Positions 1 through 11,876 of a stretch of 64,000 nucleotides of DNA are shown here, piece by piece. The notes under the pieces were generated by a model that was given only the letters and a program-made list of their open reading frames with translations, was not told the DNA's origin and did not search any database. Position 1 is the stretch's first letter. Every line of letters begins with the position of its first letter. The position numbers and the translations under genes are program-made. The stretch comes from Gammaproteobacteria bacterium (GTDB lineage: Bacteria > Pseudomonadota > Gammaproteobacteria > Eutrophobiales > Eutrophobiaceae): NCBI GenBank assembly GCA_965238225.1, contig OZ250183.1:928001-992000 (forward strand), given 5' to 3'.

Positions 1-1
1 A

Positions 2-988
2 CGTGCTGAGGCGACTCGATTTGCTTATAAACTAAAACAAGCGCTTGACGATAGCAATGCATTTGGTGCGGTACGCGTTACACCGGACAAAACGGCATCA
101 GGTGATTTATACGTGCTTGGTAAGATTAAAGAATCAAACGGTAAAGACGTAAAGTTTGCGCTGAATGTTATAGATATAAGTAGTAAATCATGGCTTAATC
201 GTAGTTTAAAACATGAAGTGAGAGAATCTTTTTACAAGAATTACAGGAACAGAGGTACAGACCCCTATACTCCAGTTTTTGAGCAGGCAGCTGATGAAAT
301 TATTGCTGCATTAAAAAAGCGCGATCCTTCAGAACTGGCTGACCTCAAATATATTGCAGATTTAAGATTCGGGGCGAGTTTTAATGATGCCGTTTTTATG
401 GAATACATGAATACCGATGGCAAATATATCAAGTTAAGAAGTAAGCCAAGCGACGATGACCCAATGCTGCAACGCGTGACATCAATACGTGTGCGCGAAC
501 AATTATTCGTTGATAGCCTGCAGCAAAACTACGCATCTTTTTCACAAAATATGGACGAAAGCTACTCGAAATGGCAAGAAGCTAGTTTTACTGAAAATAA
601 ACTACACAGTGCAGCAAAAACGGACAGCATCATGAAAGGGCTGGGGGGCGCATTGCTTCTTGGCTTATCAATAGCTGTTGCTATAGCATCCAAAGATACT
701 GGCAGTGTTGGTGCTGAAACCGCGCTCGCAACTGCTGCTATAGGAGGAGGTCTTGCTGGCGCATGGATGTTATCAGGTAGTTTCAAGTCTAAAGAAGAAG
801 CAAAATTACATAAAGATGCCATTAACGAGCTAGGAGAATCAATGAATGCCGATCTGGCTCCACGTGTAATATCTTTTGAGAATGAAACGATAGAATTAAC
901 TGGCAATATGCAAGAACAGTTCACTCAATGGAGAGGATTTCTTAAACGTATTTATAATCAAGAAGCAACCCCTGACACAGCTTTATAA
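2..988 (+). CDS. Hypothetical envelope protein, 5'-truncated by the window edge, with a glycine-rich hydrophobic hairpin near the C-terminus
   Basis: The frame of ORF 113..988 is open back to position 2 (RAEATRFAYKLKQALDDSNAFGAVRVTP...). Hydrophobic segments GLGGALLLGLSIAVAIAS and ALATAAIGGGLAGAWML. First visible gene of a tightly packed operon. Confidence 0.75.
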   Translation, partial: RAEATRFAYKLKQALDDSNAFGAVRVTPDKTASGDLYVLGKIKESNGKDVKFALNVIDISSKSWLNRSLKHEVRESFYKNYRNRGTDPYTPVFEQAADEIIAALKKRDPSELADLKYIADLRFGASFNDAVFMEYMNTDGKYIKLRSKPSDDDPMLQRVTSIRVREQLFVDSLQQNYASFSQNMDESYSKWQEASFTENKLHSAAKTDSIMKGLGGALLLGLSIAVAIASKDTGSVGAETALATAAIGGGLAGAWMLSGSFKSKEEAKLHKDAINELGESMNADLAPRVISFENETIELTGNMQEQFTQWRGFLKRIYNQEATPDTAL

Positions 989-1005: not shown

Positions 1006-2487
1006 ATGCTTGAGCAAAAACTCGCTGAAGTTAAGGCAAGCCAGCGCAAGAAATTTATCAATTTGTCTATTGGCTTTGTTGTAACCATACTGGTTTGCAG
1101 TGCGATTTTTATTATTGTTTCCTATTTCCAAGCACAGCCTGAAGTGGCTAAATCGATTTCTCCAAGCCCCGTTAAAGAAATAGAAGAAACCACTGCGCAA
1201 GCTGGCTTGGGAAAATCCCCATCAAGATCACTCGATGCCTTACAGGCAATGGACGATGAAGGACTGCGCCAGCGATACATAGATATTCTGAATGATTTTG
1301 AAAAAACTATTAAACCGCAACTTAATAAAATTGATCTAAACAAGCGGGATAAATCTCGTTTAAATCATCTTGCGATGTTAGAAGAACAAGCGCTTGCAAA
1401 ATTTAGCATTGCTGATTATGCGCAGGCATTAAATTATATTGAAGAATTAAAGCAGCTTGCCGAGGCAATTATCTTTGCTAGCGAAAAGCAATTTGAAGAG
1501 GCATTCTCTAATGCGCAGGAGGCATTTAATGCAGATAATTACGACGATGCCAGATTTTTTATAGATAACGCATTAATGCTCAACAATCAATCCGAAGATG
1601 CAGTTCATCTGTCAAATAAAATAGATGATCTGTCTGAAATTTTACCGCTACTTAGAAAAGTAAATATCGTCAGAGTCGAAAATAACCATGAGAAAGAACT
1701 TAAGCTTATAAAACATATCCTTAAATTAAACCCAAAACGAGAGTCGTCCATCGGGCGCAGGCATGAATTGGAAGGCATCATTAACAGGAAAAATTTCAAG
1801 TCATATGTTATTCAATCTTATAAAGCTATAGAGAAAGCTAATGTAAAAAAAGCAAAACAAAGCCTCAGAAAAGCAGGAAATATTTATCCTAATCGTCCAG
1901 AAATTACAGATATTACAATAGCACTACAGGCGCTTGAGAAAGATCAAAACTTTAAGAAGTATCAGCAGGCAGCACAAGCGGCAATAACATCTGATGATTG
2001 GGAAACGGCAAAACAACAATTGGAGTTGGCTCTGCAAGAACGAGCCAATGATAAATTAATTCAAGAATCACTAGCTGATGCGACAATGATTGTTTTTTTG
2101 CAAAACGATCTTGATAAACACATAGCCAATCCATATCGTTTGTCGAACAAACCGGTTTTGTCTACTGCAAAGTCTAAAATCTCAAAAGCTAAACCATTCA
2201 TTGATATGAGCTTATCACTGAAGAATAAAATAGAAACCTTATCTGGGCTTATCGAGAGCATGAACAAAAAAATTAATGTGGAGATTCTCTCTGATAACCA
2301 AACAAATATAATCGTTCGCAGGGTGGGTGTCGTTGGTAGAATACAATCAAAAACGATTCAACTGGCACCTGGGCATTATAAATTTGAAGGTAAACGAGAA
2401 GGCTTTAAATCAAAATTAATAGATGTGTTCATTTCCCATGAAGAAACAGATCATCAATTAAGCATTATTTGTGATGAATCCATTTGA
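1006..2487 (+). CDS. Membrane-anchored helical (TPR-like) protein with a C-terminal PEGA-like beta domain
   Basis: 493 aa. One N-terminal TM (FINLSIGFVVTILVCSAIFIIVSYF), TPR-like helices (ADYAQALNYI, DNYDDARFFIDNAL, DDWETAKQQLELAL) and a C-terminal beta segment (SDNQTNIIV...LAPGHYKFEGKREGF). Confidence 0.65.
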   Translation: MLEQKLAEVKASQRKKFINLSIGFVVTILVCSAIFIIVSYFQAQPEVAKSISPSPVKEIEETTAQAGLGKSPSRSLDALQAMDDEGLRQRYIDILNDFEKTIKPQLNKIDLNKRDKSRLNHLAMLEEQALAKFSIADYAQALNYIEELKQLAEAIIFASEKQFEEAFSNAQEAFNADNYDDARFFIDNALMLNNQSEDAVHLSNKIDDLSEILPLLRKVNIVRVENNHEKELKLIKHILKLNPKRESSIGRRHELEGIINRKNFKSYVIQSYKAIEKANVKKAKQSLRKAGNIYPNRPEITDITIALQALEKDQNFKKYQQAAQAAITSDDWETAKQQLELALQERANDKLIQESLADATMIVFLQNDLDKHIANPYRLSNKPVLSTAKSKISKAKPFIDMSLSLKNKIETLSGLIESMNKKINVEILSDNQTNIIVRRVGVVGRIQSKTIQLAPGHYKFEGKREGFKSKLIDVFISHEETDHQLSIICDESI

Positions 2488-4480
2488 TCAAAAAATACAT
2501 GTGGCAAAGAAAAAACAACGCCTGTTTTATATCAGGGTATTTGTATCACTACTAATAAGTGCGGTTATTATTTTAATGATTATCCTCGCCTCACGAGGCA
2601 CACGCATTGAAGTGAAACCTGATGATGCCGCCATACAAGCATCCATACATATAAATGCAGGGGTTGCCATGGTGATTGGTGAAACACTTTATTCAATATT
2701 AAACAATCCAGCTATTGCTGTTTCAGCAGAAGGCTTCCATACAAAGACGCAAGTGCTGGATAATAACGACTTTGGTAAAGTCATGCGTATTACTCTGAAA
2801 CCACTGCCTGCAATAGTAGAACTTGGCACAAACATTGACGATGATAAAACAGGCTGGATCATTGATGGTAAAACACTCGCTACTGGAAATATTTTTAAAT
2901 ATGAATTGCCCGCAGGTATTTACAAGCTCACCGTGATGCATCCTCATTATCATATAAAAACCGTGCCGCTATCTTTAATACGAGGTGAAACCTTCAAGAA
3001 AATCATTGAAGGTACCCCTATAGACGGCACGATAACCGTCAATACCAAGCCAAGTGGTGCCAGTGTATCAGTCAATACTGTTAAGAAGGGACTGACACCG
3101 ATCACTTTGACCGTACAAGGCGGTTATCATGATGTCATTGTTGCACACGACAAATATGAAAATATTAATGACACGATTGAAATCAGCCGCGCCACATCTG
3201 AGGTTCATCGAGATTATGTATTAGAGTTAAAAAAGACAAAGGTTGGTGTCACTTTAAAACCTGCTGGTGGAAAATTAAGTCTGGACGGTATCATACTCAA
3301 AGAAACAGACAATATCACTGTTGCAACAGGCATCAAGCATCGACTAACTTATTCTAAACAAGGTTATTTCACAAAAAGTGAAACCTTTAATATAACAGCT
3401 CGCGATACCTTGCTTTTATACTTTGAATTGACAAAAGAAATGGGAATGGTTGATATTGAATCAACACCAGAAGCTGAGGTTACATTGAACGGCGAGCCCA
3501 TGGGCACAACGCCGTTGCAATTATCCTTGCATGCTGTTCCCCAAGATATCACCCTGAGCAAACCGAAATATCGCAGTGTTACAAAGACTATTATTCCAAA
3601 GGCAGCGAGTAGCAAGAAAATTAGCGTAACCTTAACCTCTGAACTAACCGCGCGACTCAAAGAAGCACCCAAGCTATACACCAATAAAGCCGGCGGCAGA
3701 TTAAAACTATTTACACCAAATGATACTTTCACAATGGGGGCAAAGCGCAGTGAACCCGGTCAACGGATAAACGAGTTTATAAAAGAAATTAAACTTACTA
3801 GGCCATTTTATGCAGGCGTTTATGAAGTTACAAATGCGCAATACAGCCAATATGACAAGAGCAGGCAAGGTGACCCCGAAAAGCCAGTTACTTCTGTATC
3901 ATGGACAGATGCGGCCGGATTTTGTAACTGGCTTAGCCTGTCGGAGGGCTTAGAACCCGTTTACCATATTATAAATAACCGGCTGCAAAATATAAATACA
4001 AATATTGATGGCTATCGTTTGTTGACCGAAGCTGAATGGGAATGGTTAGTCAGAAAATCTGGCAAGTCGGCGCAAACTACATTTGTGTGGGGTGATGAGC
4101 GTACCATACCAAAGGGTGCTGTTAATATTGCAGATGAATCGGCCAAGGGCAAGGTCGAGAATATAGTGTCAAAATATAATGATGCTTATGCAGAGGCGGC
4201 ACCAGTGGGAAGTCTCGCACAGGAAAAATCTGGACTCTATGACCAAGGTGGTAATGTGAGTGAATGGACACATGATAGCTACTCGATAGTGCCGCCTAAA
4301 TCAGGTAAAGTGCTTCAAGACCCATTTGATTCGGCCATGGGCAATACCCATGTGGTTAAGGGAGCAAGCTGGCGCTCAGGCTCTATTACTAAGCTTCGAG
4401 CATCATTCAAGGACGGTTTAAACGATCCTCGGGATGATCTTGGTTTTAGGATTGGACGATATATCTATGCAGGAAATTAA
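2471..4480 (+). CDS. PEGA-repeat protein with a C-terminal FGE-sulfatase (SUMF1/EgtB/PvdO-type) domain
   Basis: N-terminal TM. PEGA motifs (TKPSGASVSVN..KGLTP; ESTPEAEVTLNGEPMGTTP). FGE-fold motifs FTMG, YEVTNAQY, PVTSVSW, RLLTEAEWE, GLYDQGGNVSEW, KGASW, GFRI. Confidence 0.85.
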   Translation: MMNPFDQKIHVAKKKQRLFYIRVFVSLLISAVIILMIILASRGTRIEVKPDDAAIQASIHINAGVAMVIGETLYSILNNPAIAVSAEGFHTKTQVLDNNDFGKVMRITLKPLPAIVELGTNIDDDKTGWIIDGKTLATGNIFKYELPAGIYKLTVMHPHYHIKTVPLSLIRGETFKKIIEGTPIDGTITVNTKPSGASVSVNTVKKGLTPITLTVQGGYHDVIVAHDKYENINDTIEISRATSEVHRDYVLELKKTKVGVTLKPAGGKLSLDGIILKETDNITVATGIKHRLTYSKQGYFTKSETFNITARDTLLLYFELTKEMGMVDIESTPEAEVTLNGEPMGTTPLQLSLHAVPQDITLSKPKYRSVTKTIIPKAASSKKISVTLTSELTARLKEAPKLYTNKAGGRLKLFTPNDTFTMGAKRSEPGQRINEFIKEIKLTRPFYAGVYEVTNAQYSQYDKSRQGDPEKPVTSVSWTDAAGFCNWLSLSEGLEPVYHIINNRLQNINTNIDGYRLLTEAEWEWLVRKSGKSAQTTFVWGDERTIPKGAVNIADESAKGKVENIVSKYNDAYAEAAPVGSLAQEKSGLYDQGGNVSEWTHDSYSIVPPKSGKVLQDPFDSAMGNTHVVKGASWRSGSITKLRASFKDGLNDPRDDLGFRIGRYIYAGN

Positions 4481-4482
4481 AC

Positions 4483-4635
4483 ATGAAATTATCAAGAAAT
4501 ATTAATAGAAGAGTGATCGTTACGGGGCTGTGCGTCATTTTCATGATGCTTGCGATTACAGTGATTCACAAAGTCTATGCAGAAAAATTCAAAATCAGTC
4601 TTAATTCACCGGTTTCTTTTCCAATTGATATATAA
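4483..4635 (+). CDS. Small 50-aa protein: signal peptide/TM plus a short C-terminal peptide ending SPVSFPIDI
   Basis: ATG 2 nt after the upstream stop and TAA 9 nt before the next ATG. Translates to MKLSRNINRRVIVTGLCVIFMMLAITVIHKVYAEKFKISLNSPVSFPIDI. Below the ORF-track cut-off but fills the operon gap exactly. Confidence 0.75.
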   Translation: MKLSRNINRRVIVTGLCVIFMMLAITVIHKVYAEKFKISLNSPVSFPIDI

Positions 4636-4644
4636 CTTATTGTC

Positions 4645-5394
4645 ATGATTAAAAATTTTATTGCGCTGGTTCTCTCTATCATCATCGTACATATGGTTTA
4701 CATTGGTTATGTGCGCCCTAAAGCCAATACATTAATAGAAATGGCCGAGCAACAAGGTCGGCAATCTGTATCCAGAAGTGTGGTGGTTATTGTGAAAGAT
4801 TATGAACAGGAAATCTGTTTCATCTTGATGTTCTGGGGCTTCTTCCTTGTTGCAAATAGTTATCGAGAAATATTAAAAACCAAACACTTGTTCTCGGTTG
4901 ATATGATTGAGGGTAAAGACAAAGACAGCGTGGATGTCGATAGTATTATCAAAAAATTGGACGAACAAATTCCGCAAGATTGTTTGTCGTCACCACTTGT
5001 CCAGACATTACGCTCATCGTTATGGCGATATTCAGCAACAAGAAACGTACAAAACTTATCTGATGCAATTGAAAGCAATCTTAACGCATTAGCCGCGAGA
5101 CAAGATTCTGAAAACACCATGATCCGTTATTTGATATGGGTGATTCCGTCCATCGGTTTTATCGGTACGGTACGTGGTATCGGGCAGGCATTATCCGCAG
5201 CAGACCAAGCGCTTGCTGGCGATATATCGGCAATGACAAATAGTCTCGGTGTTGCGTTTAATTCAACACTGGTTGCACTGCTGATTAGTATTTTTTTGAT
5301 GTTTCTTTTTCATCAATTACAAAGGCTGCAAGATAGTCAAATACTTGATACACAAGAATATTGTGAAAAATATTTACTCAGGCGTATAAGGTAG
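4645..5394 (+). CDS. MotA/TolQ/ExbB proton-channel family protein
   Basis: Motifs IPSIGFIGTVRGIGQAL and SLGVAFNSTLVALL match the last two TM helices of ExbB/TolQ/MotA. Confidence 0.9.
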   Translation: MIKNFIALVLSIIIVHMVYIGYVRPKANTLIEMAEQQGRQSVSRSVVVIVKDYEQEICFILMFWGFFLVANSYREILKTKHLFSVDMIEGKDKDSVDVDSIIKKLDEQIPQDCLSSPLVQTLRSSLWRYSATRNVQNLSDAIESNLNALAARQDSENTMIRYLIWVIPSIGFIGTVRGIGQALSAADQALAGDISAMTNSLGVAFNSTLVALLISIFLMFLFHQLQRLQDSQILDTQEYCEKYLLRRIR

Positions 5395-5404
5395 CTTCTC
5401 AGGA

Positions 5405-6466
5405 TTGGGCCAACGTAAGCAATCGGAAGGATTTAATCTCGCTTTTCTCGATATTATGTCGTGTGGTCTCGGCGCTGTCGTTCTTGTGTTTATGTTGGTA
5501 AAGCACAACATTAATGACTCTTCAGTTGAGCTTAAAAATCTTGAAAATGATATTCAAAATTTCGAAGTAATAAAACAAGATTCCATCCAGTTTTTGCAAA
5601 AAATTGAGACACAGATTTCTGAAGAAAGTTCGCAGGCAGAAGCGATCAAGAAAAAGCTTGCCAAGCTACAATCAGTTTTGACGAATAAGAATACCAATAT
5701 TGGAAAAATATCCAGAGAAATAGAAAGCCTTAAATCTAATATTGTAGATATAGAAATTGGAAAGAAAGAAGATTTAGTAGAAACCGAACAGGTTAATGAA
5801 GAAAATTATCTGTTGGGCCTTAAGGTTGAGGGACAAAAAATTGCGATTTTGTTAGATAGCAGCGCATCAATGACAAACGAAAAATTGATCGACATTATTA
5901 AAACTAAAAATAGTTCTAAAAAAGATAAACAACAGGCAGACAAATGGGTCAGAACAAAAAAGATTGTAGCGTGGTTGTTGGCACGTTTACCTAAAAACAG
6001 TGATATAGTTGTTGTGACCTTTAATGAAAAGGCGAAGATATTAGGTAAGCAAGGATGGATGAAAGCGATCGATCCATTAGGTTTGTCCTCAATCTTGTCT
6101 GATTTGAACAAACTGGTTCCCGAGGGTGGTACGAACCTTCAATCTGGACTACGCATGGCAAACAAATATTCACCGTCGAATTTATATCTTATCACTGATG
6201 GCTTGCCGACTAAGGGTGAGTCACGTTACAAAAACCTGAACCCATTTGCGAGCTGCAATTCTCTGCTGGGCACTTCAAACACGATTTCGGGCGAGTGTCG
6301 GATAAAACTGTTTAAGAAAACTATTGCTGAAAGTAAACAAGAAGGTGTTCAAATAAACGTTGTGTTATTACCTGTTGAAGGTGATCCTGATGCGGTAAAT
6401 CAGTATTGGTATTGGTCGGCATCAACAGGAGGATTGGTGATTAGCCCCGCGAATAATTGGCCATGA
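5405..6466 (+). CDS. vWA-domain protein with an N-terminal ExbD/TolR-like TM and a coiled coil
   Basis: TM FNLAFLDIMSCGLGAVVLVFML containing Asp, then a coiled coil. MIDAS elements DSSAS, GGTNL, ITDG. Confidence 0.85.
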   Translation: MGQRKQSEGFNLAFLDIMSCGLGAVVLVFMLVKHNINDSSVELKNLENDIQNFEVIKQDSIQFLQKIETQISEESSQAEAIKKKLAKLQSVLTNKNTNIGKISREIESLKSNIVDIEIGKKEDLVETEQVNEENYLLGLKVEGQKIAILLDSSASMTNEKLIDIIKTKNSSKKDKQQADKWVRTKKIVAWLLARLPKNSDIVVVTFNEKAKILGKQGWMKAIDPLGLSSILSDLNKLVPEGGTNLQSGLRMANKYSPSNLYLITDGLPTKGESRYKNLNPFASCNSLLGTSNTISGECRIKLFKKTIAESKQEGVQINVVLLPVEGDPDAVNQYWYWSASTGGLVISPANNWP

Positions 6467-7413
6467 AACTACGTAAACGAGCATTCGACATCTTTAATCT
6501 ATCATTCTTGGATATCATTTCATGTGGATTCGGTGCCGTAGTAATGTTAGTGCTGATTTCAAAACCATATGATAATATTTCAATTACAGGACAAGAAGAA
6601 ATCAAAGATTTATTAAAAACAGTTATCACACTTAAAAATACAATTTTCGAAATGGAACAAACTATAGGAAGTCAATCTTTAAAGGCGAGAAAATTATCAA
6701 ATAAAAATAAACAGCTGGAAATAACTGCAAATCAACTTGAGCGTAAAATACAGAATCAAGAAAAGCAACAAACATCACTTGCTGATGATCTACAAGGTTT
6801 AGCACTGGTTCAATCGACGTTGAAGAAGGCATCACTTTCAATTCAAGAATCGATTAATACGATGCGTGATGAGGAAGTAGGAGGGATTCCTGTTGATAGT
6901 GATTACCTTATCTTCATTGTCGATACATCTGGCAGTATGCGACAGATATGGAACCGTGTTTCTTCGGAGATTATAAATGTCTTGAATATTCATCCAGAGG
7001 TGAAGGGCTTTCAGATATTAAATGACATGGGTAGGTCGCTGGTATCTGGATACGATGGCAAATGGATGTCGGATACTCCCAAAAGAAGGAAGAGTGTAAT
7101 CAATATATTCGATAGCTGGGCAGAGATGTCAAACAGCAGTCCAGTAGAAGGTATCGAGACAGCACTACGAAAATATGCAAAAAAAGATATAACAACATCA
7201 ATCTATGTATTTGGTGATGATTATACAGGTTCATCTTATGACTCTGTTATTGAGAAAATAACCAAACAAAATAATTTAACTGGCACTAAAAACAGGTTCG
7301 CCAAGATTCACGGTATCGGTTTTATTTCGCCAGGGGCAACAGACCAATTTGGTATATTGATGCGTGAGTTGACAAAACAAAACGGCGGGACATTTCTAGC
7401 CTTGCCACTTTAG
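6463..7413 (+). CDS. Second vWA-domain protein with an N-terminal ExbD/TolR-like TM and a coiled coil
   Basis: ATGA overlap with the previous stop. TM FNLSFLDIISCGFGAVVMLVLI, a coiled coil, MIDAS DTSGS and FGDD. Confidence 0.85.
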   Translation: MKLRKRAFDIFNLSFLDIISCGFGAVVMLVLISKPYDNISITGQEEIKDLLKTVITLKNTIFEMEQTIGSQSLKARKLSNKNKQLEITANQLERKIQNQEKQQTSLADDLQGLALVQSTLKKASLSIQESINTMRDEEVGGIPVDSDYLIFIVDTSGSMRQIWNRVSSEIINVLNIHPEVKGFQILNDMGRSLVSGYDGKWMSDTPKRRKSVINIFDSWAEMSNSSPVEGIETALRKYAKKDITTSIYVFGDDYTGSSYDSVIEKITKQNNLTGTKNRFAKIHGIGFISPGATDQFGILMRELTKQNGGTFLALPL

Positions 7414-7891: not shown

Positions 7892-8344
7892 ATGAACAGT
7901 AGAAAACAGCACAGGCAGAATAATCATCAACAGGGTTTTTCCATGATAGAGCTGATGGTAGTAGTTGCGATCGTTGGCATTATGGCCTCAGTCGCGCTGC
8001 CAACCTATCAAAATTATACCGAAAAAACTCAGCTAGCGGCGGTTTCATCAGAGCTTGCAAGCGCCAAAAAAGCGTATCATATAATCAAAGCTGCGGGAGA
8101 GGAACCACAGTCTCTCCGAGATCAAGACAACTGGATTGGCGTGAATATTGAATCTGACTCCGGTGCATGCTGGATGCAGATCCACTTATCCCCAACAATA
8201 GACTTATCGTGCCGTATCAATAAAGGGCACTTTAAGGGAGCATACATTTATTTAGATTATGATTCTAATCCTCCTTGGAATTGTAGTTTTGAAGGCACAC
8301 CACTCATACCCAGTGATCTTCAAAAGTATGTGACCGCCTGCTAG
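7892..8344 (+). CDS. Type IVa pilin-like protein
   Basis: Prepilin cleavage/methylation motif QG|[28 protein letters not shown]-terminal cysteines, and a GGAGG RBS at about 7881. Confidence 0.9.
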
Positions 8345-8755: not shown

Positions 8756-8917
8756 ATAATTTATTAATTTCAATGATTGTTTCGATGCAAGTATTGTATA
8801 CTGTCAACAGCATTGCACCAACGCAGGTAAAGATGAGCGGTTTATTGTTTGTGTACGAGATTATTTACGTGTTTTTTTCTTTTATTATTTAGATTGATAA
8901 AGGGTATAACAAACCAG

Positions 8918-9286
8918 ATGTTGGAAAATTATTTCCCCATTCTTGTATTCATTATTATTGGCTTGGTGCTGGGTACCACGATGATCATTATTGGGTTTGG
9001 TTTTGGTAAGTTGATGGGTCATGCTCGTCCGGATTCTGTAAAACAGTCTCCTTATGAATGCGGCTTCGAAGCATTTGAAAATGCCCGTATTAAATTTGAC
9101 GTTCGTTATTATCTTGTTGCCATCTTATTTATTATCTTTGATCTTGAAATTGCATTTCTCTTTCCATGGGCAGTTGTGCTTGAAGAAATAGGCTTGGCTG
9201 GGTTTTGGGCAATGATGATTTTTCTTGGCGTGCTTGTGATTGGTTTTATTTATGAATGGCGCAAAGGAGCTCTTGAATGGGAGTAA
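8918..9286 (+). CDS. nuoA: NADH-quinone oxidoreductase subunit A
   Basis: [11 protein letters not shown]..., [32 protein letters not shown]. Start moved to ATG 8918. Confidence 0.97.
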
Positions 9287-9795
9287 CACAACAAACTGGA
9301 GTATTGAATATGACTCAGGATATGGAAGGCACCGTTCATGAAAAAGGCATTGTCACTACAACAGTAGATAACGTTGTTAATTGGGCCAGAACAGGATCCC
9401 TATGGCCGATGACCTTTGGTTTGGCATGTTGTGCCGTAGAGATGATGCAGGCGGGTGCTTCTCGTTATGATATGGATCGTTTTGGTGTCATTTTCAGGCC
9501 CAGCCCTCGTCAATCTGATGTAATGATAGTTGCTGGTACGCTGGTTAATAAGATGGCACCTGCACTACGAAAAGTTTATGACCAGATGGCAGAACCACGT
9601 TGGGTAATATCCATGGGTTCATGTGCAAATGGAGGTGGTTATTATCACTACTCTTATTCTGTGGTCAGGGGTTGTGACCGAATTGTTCCTGTGGATGTTT
9701 ATGTGCCAGGCTGCCCACCTACGGCAGAGGCGCTTTTGTTTGGGATCATACAACTGCAAAATAAAATCAAACGCACTAACACGATTGAGTGTTAA
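9277..9795 (+). CDS. nuoB: NADH-quinone oxidoreductase subunit B
   Basis: [30 protein letters not shown]. Confidence 0.97.
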
Positions 9796-9827
9796 CTTGA
9801 AACACTTGAAATAATAATTTCAAAAAT

Positions 9828-10508
9828 ATGGCAAGTTCTGTTGTGAAACTGGTGGATTTTATCAAGCAGCGTTTTGGTGAAAAGGTGCTTGATGTGCAGG
9901 TTGCTTTTGGGCAGGTAGTGATTGAGTTAACACCGGATCATTTGCTTGCAGTTTGCCAGTCACTTAAAAATGAAGAGGAATTCTCCTTTCAGCAATTAGT
10001 TGATCTGTGTGGCGTTGATTACTCAACTTTTGGCAAGGCAGACTGGGAAACCAAAAGTACGTCAAGCACAGGGTTTAGTCGTGGCGTGAGTAAAGAAATT
10101 TTTGATGATGAAACACAAACGCAACTACGATTTGCTGTGGTCTATCATCTACTGTCTATTAAGCACAATCAGCGATTGCGTGTTCGCTGCATGATTAATG
10201 AAACACCCGCAAAGATTGAATCTGTAGTTAGACTCTGGGCATCAGCAAATTGGTATGAGCGTGAGGCTTTTGATTTATTCGGTATTCTTTTTGAAGGCCA
10301 TCCTGACTTAAGGAGAATTTTGACCGATTATGGTTTTATCGGGCATCCATTTAGGAAGGATTTTCCGTTGGAAGGAAACGTTGAAGTGCGTTACGACCCT
10401 GAACAAAAACGTGTGATCTATCAGCCTGTGACTATTACTAACCGTGTTTTGGTGCCACGAGTCATTCGTCATGATAATCGTTATGAGGAAGCGAGCGATG
10501 ATACATAA
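9828..10508 (+). CDS. nuoC: NADH-quinone oxidoreductase subunit C
   Basis: [35 protein letters not shown]. Confidence 0.97.
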
Positions 10509-10622
10509 AACAATGACGCATAAAAAGATATTTAAGATGAGCATCAACATGAAATTACTATGTGTTTGTATATAAAAATTAAAGCGCAACGATTGTTATT
10601 TTTCATTTTGGATGTATGAAAA

Positions 10623-11876
10623 ATGCCTGATATTAGTAATATGACAATGAATTTTGGGCCGCAGCATCCTGCTGCCCATGGTGTCCTGCGTTTGGTGTTG
10701 GAAATGAACGGTGAAGTGATTGAAAGAGCCGATCCGCATATTGGTTTATTGCACCGAGGTACGGAAAAATTAGCTGAGTATAAACCATACAATCAAAATA
10801 TCGGTTATATGGATAGGCTTGATTATGTTTCCATGATGTGTAATGAGCATGCTTATGTGATGGCAATTGAAAAACTCATAGACGTTACACCGCCACCTCG
10901 CGCGCAATATATCCGTGTTATGTATGCAGAAATTACCCGTATATTAAATCATTTAATGTGGCTCGGAACCCACGCGCTGGATATCGGCGCTATGACTATG
11001 TTTTTATATTGTTTTCGTGAACGTGAAGATCTCATGGACTGTTATGAAGCAGTCTCGGGCACACGCATGCATGCAACTTATTTTCGTCCAGGAGGCGTTT
11101 ATAGAGATCTCCCTAAAACGATGCCTCAATATGAAATATCAAAATGGCATAACGAAAAAGAAGTGAAAAAAATGAATCAAAGCAGACAAGGTTCTTTGCT
11201 TGATTTTATCAAAAGATTCACAGAGAAATTTCCTGGTTGTGTTGATGAATATGAAACGCTATTAACGGACAATAGAATCTGGAAACAGCGTACTGTTGAC
11301 ATTGGTGTTGTTTCGGCAGAAAGAGCATTACAGCTAGGGTTTACTGGTCCGATGTTAAGAGGTTCTGGCGTTGAATGGGATCTGCGTAAAAAACAAACTT
11401 ATGATATTTATGACCAAGTTGAGTTTGATATTCCGGTTGGAGTCAATGGTGATTGTTATGATCGCTATCTAGTTCGAATTGAGGAAATGCGTCAATCTAA
11501 TAGTATTATTAAACAATGTGTAGACTGGTTAAAACAAAATCCAGGACCAGTAATCTTGGATGACTCCAAATTAATCTCACCAAGACGTGAAGATATGAAA
11601 GGCGATATGGAATCTCTTATTCATCACTTTAAATTATTTACTGAAGGCTATTGTGTGCCAGAAGGTGAAACTTACTCAGCAGTAGAGCATCCAAAAGGCG
11701 AATTTGGAATTTATTTAATTTCTGATGGAGCAAATAAACCGTACCGATTGAAAATTCGCGCTCCTGGTTTTGCACATTTATCAGCCATGGATGAAATGGT
11801 CAGGGGTCATATGTTGTCTGATGTAGTAACAGTGATAGGAACACAGGATATTGTCTTTGGAGAAATAGATCGATGA
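10623..11876 (+). CDS. nuoD: NADH-quinone oxidoreductase subunit D
   Basis: [33 protein letters not shown]. Confidence 0.98.

Follow-up and report, generated by a model that had tools for sequence, protein, structure and literature searches.

Does the short open reading frame (ORF) that lies between an FGE-fold gene and a TolQ-like channel gene in a gammaproteobacterial genome encode a part of the machine to which its neighbours belong and, if so, what could that part do? The ORF lies in a stretch of 64,000 nucleotides (contig OZ250183.1, positions 928,001 to 992,000 of the forward strand), hereafter called the window. The original prediction, made from the letters of the window, described a 50-residue product with a signal peptide, and proposed that the secreted remainder may be a ligand, plug or substrate of the machine encoded around it.

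TolQ-like motors with a heterologous pair of "transpore-helix" vWA proteins (TPH-vWA) have been predicted in silico (Mol Biol Evol 2025;42:msaf138, PMC12204202). Going by the main text of that paper, the window holds the same core: a TolQ/MotA gene followed by two TM(Asp)-coiled-coil-vWA genes that differ from each other, tolR/exbD being absent. Its cassette adds to this three-gene core the peptide described here and four other conserved partners. The terms "FGE", "PEGA", "sulfatase", "small protein" and "small ORF" do not occur in the main text, supplements aside. A peptide with an FPxDI tail was not found in the literature searched.

Results

The cassette and the small ORF

The operon begins before the window, and the cassette therefore consists of eight genes. 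The seven neighbours of the small ORF are the following; coordinates are those of the window unless preceded by a locus name.

L066:5086-5745, preceding orfA: 219-aa secreted acidic low-complexity ORF, no Pfam match
1..988, + strand: 3' part of orfA (complete at L066:5742-6989), a 415-aa lipoprotein with lipobox FLAGC, no Pfam match
1006..2487, + strand: orfB, with a TM helix, a disordered linker, TPR-like helical repeats and a C-terminal PEGA-like beta-sandwich (AF2 pLDDT 88.6)
2471..4480, + strand: TM-PEGA-FGE-fold gene, with an N-terminal TM helix, PEGA repeats (PF08308, 1e-27) and a C-terminal FGE-sulfatase-fold (PF03781, 2.3e-32)
4645..5394, + strand: TolQ/MotA/ExbB-family channel gene (PF01618, 1.3e-15)
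5405..6466, + strand: vWA1, with an ExbD/TolR-like TM helix carrying Asp (FLDIMSCGLG), a coiled coil, and a vWA domain with DxSxS..GGT..TDG
6457..7413, + strand: vWA2, a paralogous TM(Asp)-coiled-coil-vWA gene with FLDIISCG and DTSGS..SSPVEG..GDD

The upstream stretch L066:5086-6989 corresponds to G000:C1:927085-928988. orfA starts about 260 nt before the window, overlaps the 219-aa ORF by 4 nt, and has a glycine-zipper-like hydrophobic region at its C-terminus. The model of orfB gave weak Foldseek matches to TPR proteins and to carboxypeptidase regulatory domains. In the two axle proteins, the Asp of the TM helix is invariant (D16 of vWA1, D19 of vWA2), and DxSxS and further MIDAS-type motifs are kept in both paralogues in 27/27 aligned loci. 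Searches with Pfam and NCBIfam revealed no PDZ domain in the operon. PADLOC returned weak matches only (ZorA/ZorB TM regions and coiled-coil noise), and a defence system is thus unsupported.

True FGEs carry a catalytic Cys pair near the C-terminal end of the domain. In the FGE-fold domain encoded here (residues 394-669), C485 is the sole Cys, and the region towards the C-terminal end has none; with the pair absent, the neighbour was rejected as a catalytic formylglycine-generating enzyme. By sequence, its nearest solved relatives in the PDB are FGEs and PorK (E about 1e-9 to 1e-10).

About 480 nt past the cassette lies a type IV pilin-like gene with an N_methyl motif (window 7892-8344), followed by the start of a nuoA-D NADH dehydrogenase operon (window 8849-11876). 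An extra gene of about 440 aa, with no Pfam match, stands between the TolQ-like gene and vWA1 in many cassettes (L151:2729-4042, minus strand; L051-L065) and is absent from that of the window.

The small ORF itself, whose translation is MKLSRNINRRVIVTGLCVIFMMLAITVIHKVYAEKFKISLNSPVSFPIDI, has these parts.

4471..4474, + strand: AGGA, Shine-Dalgarno-like, 8 nt 5' of the ATG and within the end of the upstream gene, read from the sequence
4483..4635, + strand: small ORF, pre-peptide of the FPxDI-tail family (ATG, 50 codons, TAA)
4483..4581, + strand: residues 1-33, predicted Sec signal peptide or else uncleaved membrane anchor (heuristic (-3,-1) scan)
4582..4632, + strand: residues 34-50, predicted mature 17-mer EKFKISLNSPVSFPIDI, assuming cleavage after VYA33
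4594..4632, + strand: residues 38-50, ISLNSPVSFPIDI, family-defining C-terminal motif (family comparison)

It starts 2 nt past the stop of the FGE-fold gene and ends 9 nt ahead of the TolQ-like gene. Since the former ends at 4480 and the latter starts at 4645, the ORF fills the gap between the FGE and ExbB-like genes, as had been claimed.

The way in which the tail varies bears on whether the ORF is protein-coding. Among 66 loci, the 12-codon tail occurs in 60 DNA versions and 6 peptide versions, and pairwise comparison of the versions gave 12368 synonymous against 1118 non-synonymous codon-position differences. The tail is thus conserved at the protein level. As these 66 loci were selected by the peptide pattern, the figures speak for protein-level conservation rather than for independent conservation of each residue. 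Within the 1.72-Mb genome, read in six frames, the window ORF is the only one among ORFs of at least 30 aa to end in [FLWMIY]PxDI, so the tail is not a general sorting tag. The sequence evidence indicates that the 50-codon ORF is a real gene, previously unannotated.

A large family of peptides with an FPxDI tail

The small protein has no match in Pfam or NCBIfam, and the scoring clusters of the ESM Atlas (0.81-0.85) were all unnamed. A first profile was built from three members, the window ORF and two syntenic relatives from related genomes, and out of 281 candidates, 244 proteins 25-90 aa long matched it at E<=1. The 121 short-form sequences read from this set all end NSPxxFP[VI]DI. The source labels of the matched proteins are unnamed or hypothetical, save for one automatic permease label on an over-long gene call, and the taxa in the source names of the matches to this profile were Methylophaga, Thiotrichaceae, Thioglobus and Chromatiales.

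With a 26-member profile built from diverse loci, 4165 cluster representatives were obtained at E<=0.001, and 69 at E<=1e-10, from 1.84 billion searched. The best 150 of the 4165 are 66-107 aa long, and each was matched through its last residue; 134 of these 150 end in FPVDI, and 150/150 fit hydrophobic-P-x-[DN]-[IMLV]. The original prediction had suggested that small proteins ending in FPVDI occur in such loci, and this proved correct. To judge from the two profiles, the FPxDI-tail peptides are a large family not previously described.

The majority of members are of a long form, composed of a classic signal peptide, a linker of 30-70 residues rich in Pro, Ala, Glu, Gln and Lys, and the motif F-x-P-[ST]-E-x-I-S-x-D-x-x-V-x-F-P-V-D-I-COOH. 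In the short form of the window the linker is gone and the last 13 motif residues are retained. The family can be defined as proteins of about 38-110 aa with a signal-type N-terminus, ending I-S-x-[DN]-x-x-V-x-[FLIMW]-P-x-D-I, and the window ORF has all of these features. Within the tail, Pro at -4 is invariant, and Asp at -2 and Ile at -1 are nearly so. Asp -2 is present in 35/36 loci of the class sample described below and in 150/150 of the best representatives; Asn replaces it in two loci, L056 and L215. Position -6, two residues before the invariant Pro, is variable (S 13, A 10, T 4, D 4, P 2, R 1; n=34). The tail, counted as 13-20 residues, is among the most conserved sequences of the operon.

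Natural fusions of the peptide to a larger protein were sought as well, and none was convincing. The short-form profile gave one match among longer proteins (E 0.088), and the long-form profile 10 matches of 162-285 aa, of which 8 were read; most look like over-long N-terminal or chimeric gene calls. One of them, P0275, is a metagenome gene call from ENA (285 aa) with an FGE-sulfatase Pfam match and the peptide tail at its end. It was rejected as a true fusion: apparently a frameshift in the FGE gene lets the gene call run on into the small ORF. Weak profile matches in genomes G048, G126 and G198 (E 0.003-0.007) covered the hydrophobic part only and are probably spurious. In genome G402 (L071:6403-6681), the small ORF is tandemly duplicated and fused in one 93-aa frame; the tail of the first copy is degenerate (...LGLHSPASLYSAI...) and the second copy is intact (...LNLNSPAAFPVDI).

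The small ORF accompanies the motor genes

In order to score synteny independently of the peptide, loci were picked by the vWA gene alone. A vWA1 homologue is present in 36/400 genomes of the class. The class sample comprises 35 of these 36 genomes (G063 was left out) and 36 loci, one genome having two cassettes. In 36/36 loci, an ORF with a signal peptide and the tail directly follows the PEGA-FGE gene, which bears out the claim that the small gene belongs to the MotA/ExbB-vWA-FGE gene set. The tails read [FLIMW]PxDI in 34 loci, IPANI in one and IPSDM in one. The peptide profile alone found 9 of these genomes, and in the rest the ORF was recognised by its position.

A second sample consisted of 80 metagenome loci retrieved with the vWA1 alignment. 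The 3' end of the FGE gene is present in 56/80, and the tail ORF in 55/56; at the exception, L203, an 88-aa signal-peptide ORF with a divergent end, MYADM, occupies the same place. The FGE frame is broken in L175, where the ORF is present, and in L205, on one metagenome contig, the ORF precedes motA with no FGE gene upstream. The remaining 22 loci have no FGE match. In 70/71 genome loci collected by the tail pattern, the ORF stands between an upstream FGE gene and a downstream MotA gene; the other locus is at the beginning of a contig. The record titles of these loci add Sneathiella and Rhodospirillales (alphaproteobacteria), Arenicellales, Poriferihabitaceae and one MAG labelled Spirochaetales. 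In the related loci in which it was looked for, a small ORF occupies this position.

Peptide and vWA1 are also absent together, as 8/9 same-genus genomes without the ORF are without vWA1. Within the genus, vWA1 occurs in 2/11 genomes, G000 (the genome from which the window comes) and one in which it is truncated by the contig; the cassette is found in several other genera of the family. This patchiness, together with the presence in other genera, suggests an accessory, possibly transferred gene set.

Stop and start codons of the FGE gene and the small ORF overlap in 10/25 loci, with start codons chosen by us. In two rearranged clusters, G153 and G298, the ORF remains with the FGE gene. In G298 (C6, about 119.5-142.5 kb; L149 and L155), unrelated genes spanning about 20 kb, a 1251-aa ORF among them, separate the cassette into two parts on the same strand, orfA..FGE+peptide and motA-vWA1-vWA2. 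Genome G214 has two complete paralogous cassettes, L055 (C1) and L056 (C2), with different peptides: a long form with the end SFPVDI, and a short form of 38 aa in which Asn takes the place of Asp (DIPANI). Both cassettes retain the MIDAS motifs.

Export signal or membrane anchor

The N-terminus of the window protein is of the signal-peptide type, with a positively charged n-region (K2, R5, R9 and R10 within residues 1-10), an uncharged core (residues 11-28) and a c-region HKVYA. The sequence V31-Y-A33↓E34 fits the (-3,-1) rule, with no Pro from -3 to +1, in a heuristic scan. The basic N-region, hydrophobic core, VYA↓E site and 17-residue remainder listed in the original prediction were all recovered, and the relatives are alike. 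By a simple scan, a (-3,-1) site lies right behind the core in 121/121 short-form members, and is of the type [AV]xA in 117; 31/31 class-sample members scanned also have one. The mature length predicted for short forms by the heuristic scan has a median of 17 and a range of 14-19. In long forms the signal peptides are classic (AHA↓QDD, AYA↓QEE, VNA↓EEN) and are followed by Pro/Ala/Glu/Gln-rich linkers, and alphaproteobacterial members read ...FAYA↓QSGISLNSPVSFPVDI. The identity of a lipoprotein, processed by SPase II, was rejected: no lipobox L-[AS]-[GA]-C closes the h-region, and the sole Cys, C17 (TGLCV), is inside the core and is not kept in relatives.

The hydrophobic segment could also stay in place as an anchor. 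The product would then be an uncleaved single-pass inner-membrane mini-protein, N-in C-out, and its 17-residue tail a membrane-tethered ligand close to the TolQ-like pentamer or to TM helices of neighbouring proteins. The uncharged stretch measures 18 residues in the window protein, as does the median of the 121 short forms (range 15-28), which exceeds the usual length in signal peptides and would suit an uncleaved anchor. In the AF2 model, a helix spanning residues 3-35 continues through the VYA site; the tail that follows is non-regular (pLDDT 61-65) and, as modelled, has no fold of its own. One subgroup (...AGVVGYSLSLNSP...) is without a good AxA site. However, the [AV]xA directly before the motif, kept in 117/121 short forms, would be needless for an anchor. 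Moreover, the long forms, which are more numerous, have short, classic signal peptides ahead of disordered acidic linkers, and anchoring is thus not conserved in the family. We consider the anchor unlikely.

Substrate, pore helix or chance ORF

The peptide might be a substrate, RiPP-like or FGE-type, that the neighbouring FGE-fold domain modifies. The small ORF adjoins the FGE-fold gene and is often translationally coupled to it, and the sequence S-F-P-V-D is formally like the FGE motif (C/S)-x-P-x-R. However, C485 leaves the domain without the Cys pair, position -6 varies (S/A/T/D/P/R), and the window tail S-F-P-I-D has Asp where Arg is required. The pattern expected for a RiPP is reversed too, since there the core usually varies and the leader is conserved. 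Because the Cys pair is absent, position -6 variable and Arg missing, an enzyme-substrate relation is very unlikely, and the suggestion of a substrate in the original prediction is weakened. Even less probable is a pore helix or plug of the MotB/ExbD type, which would make the peptide a third stator subunit in the channel. Residues 12-38 did match the TM region of the PADLOC model for ZorB (MotB) weakly (E 0.0021, 15.8 bits), most likely by composition. Against this role, the hydrophobic segment (residues 11-33) contains neither Asp nor any other acidic residue, which is the defining feature of such helices, its sequence is not conserved across the family, and the Asp-bearing helices come from the two vWA proteins. 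It is the missing Asp that makes a MotB-like function so improbable. Finally, being short and having no Pfam or NCBIfam match, the ORF might have arisen by chance or be no more than non-coding sequence that separates two genes. Its thousands of homologues, whose tail is conserved at the protein level, its strict synteny and its ribosome-binding site leave this next to no probability.

Discussion

A proposed docking subunit of an envelope machine

The small ORF probably encodes a missing part of a predicted ion-driven envelope machine, because it is present in the related cassette copies examined. Our preferred reading, to which we give a probability of roughly 0.6, is that its product is an exported and cleaved periplasmic mini-subunit or ligand whose tail docks on one of the machine's periplasmic domains. 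The Sec pathway would export the product, and signal peptidase I would most likely cut after VYA33, leaving 17 residues as a periplasmic peptide. Its functional part would be the C-terminal 13 residues (I-S-x-[DN]-x-x-V-x-F-P-x-D-I-COOH), an extended short motif of the docking type. This tail, with its terminal Asp-Ile carboxylate, would insert as a strand into the periplasmic domain of a neighbour. The envelope machine, with its eight genes, would need the peptide as an obligatory subunit or ligand of small size. Its other parts are the secreted acidic protein, the lipoprotein, the TPR-like membrane protein, the TM-PEGA-FGE-fold protein, the TolQ-like channel and a pair of TM(Asp)-coiled-coil-vWA "axle" proteins. 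Taken as a whole, the interpretation given in the original prediction is partly supported.

As for the domain that receives the tail, we tentatively place the FGE-fold domain encoded upstream first. The argument from linkage is mixed here, as the ORF stays with the FGE gene in G153 and G298, but with motA in L205. The MIDAS site of a vWA head comes second as a possible, somewhat less probable candidate, and the TPR-like protein is a doubtful third; the rest of the probability goes to other partners. An association scan of tail variants (positions -2, -3 and -5) against all columns of six neighbour proteins gave no clear signal. The columns that scored highest belong to the smallest alignments (orfB, n=23; orfA, n=51) and seem to mark clades.

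The MIDAS candidate, the first idea of the original prediction, implies that one vWA head would receive the missing ligand of its metal site from Asp -2 or from the terminal carboxylate, much as integrins do from the acidic motifs of their ligands. The near-constancy of Asp -2 and the motifs kept in both vWA paralogues are consistent with this, and V-D-I may be likened to integrin ligands of the L/I-D-V/S/T type. On the other hand, two loci have Asn at -2, and in one of them, L056 (tail ...IPANI), the MIDAS motifs are intact, so that a strict Asp-metal pairing is not favoured. Metal binding alone would also leave the invariant Pro -4 and Phe -5 unexplained. A bolder combination, which we regard as improbable but worth stating, is a "TonB box in trans": the docking peptide would be a free, exported mini-subunit, its acidic C-terminal strand gripped by the rotating vWA heads through their MIDAS and its other face held in the Cys-less FGE-fold domain, and it would act as a clutch between the ion-driven axle and a static PEGA/FGE/TPR scaffold.

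Relation to known systems

The cassette varies a theme, the 5:2 motor, that is known from Ton, Tol, Mot, GldLM and Zorya. We know of no counterpart of the peptide in these systems. In Ton and Tol, the TonB box and the N-terminal peptide of TolB are gripped by the C-terminal domains of TonB and TolA. Like the FPxDI tail, they are short, extended, conserved linear motifs, and by analogy the tail might be a handle for the periplasmic head of a protein driven by a 5:2 motor. They are parts of large proteins, outer-membrane transporters and TolB, whereas the FPxDI tail, unlike the TonB box, is C-terminal, and would either form the mature product in its entirety or terminate a disordered protein of 50-90 aa.

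The type IX secretion and gliding machinery (T9SS) offers another likeness, as there GldK/PorK, likewise an FGE-fold protein of non-enzymatic appearance, is encoded beside a MotA-like motor, the 5:2 motor GldL/PorL-GldM/PorM. The FGE-fold protein of the window scored below the cutoff of the GldK model TIGR03525 (3.4e-20, 72.7 bits against 350) and matched PorK in the PDB at 2.8e-9. The two systems differ in that GldK/PorK is a lipoprotein, whereas the window protein is TM-anchored and has PEGA repeats, and in that the axle proteins of the window carry vWA heads. To our knowledge, T9SS has no peptide of the FPxDI type.

Recognition of a C-terminus or short motif by a dedicated domain is well known from the "carboxylate clamp" by which TPR domains bind EEVD-COOH, from class II PDZ ligands, and from the binding of LDV/RGD to the MIDAS of integrins. 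The FPxDI tail resembles these acidic or hydrophobic C-terminal or short motifs by analogy. The window operon encodes a TPR-like protein and two MIDAS-type vWA domains, comparable to the TPR clamp and integrin modules, with no claim of membership.

Implications

Ion-driven 5:2 envelope motors with vWA heads were first predicted in 2025 and are themselves uncharacterised; the tiny gene described here accompanies them in the cassettes examined, and gene callers often miss it. The evidence points to the peptide being a new conserved component of the machine predicted in 2025. A structural model, co-fold or reconstitution that omits it is likely to be incomplete. A synthetic peptide of 13-17 residues offers a cheap handle for finding what the vWA heads or the FGE-fold domain hold. 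If the "TonB box in trans" were true, the machine would be the first known case of a 5:2 motor that depends on a diffusible coupling peptide.
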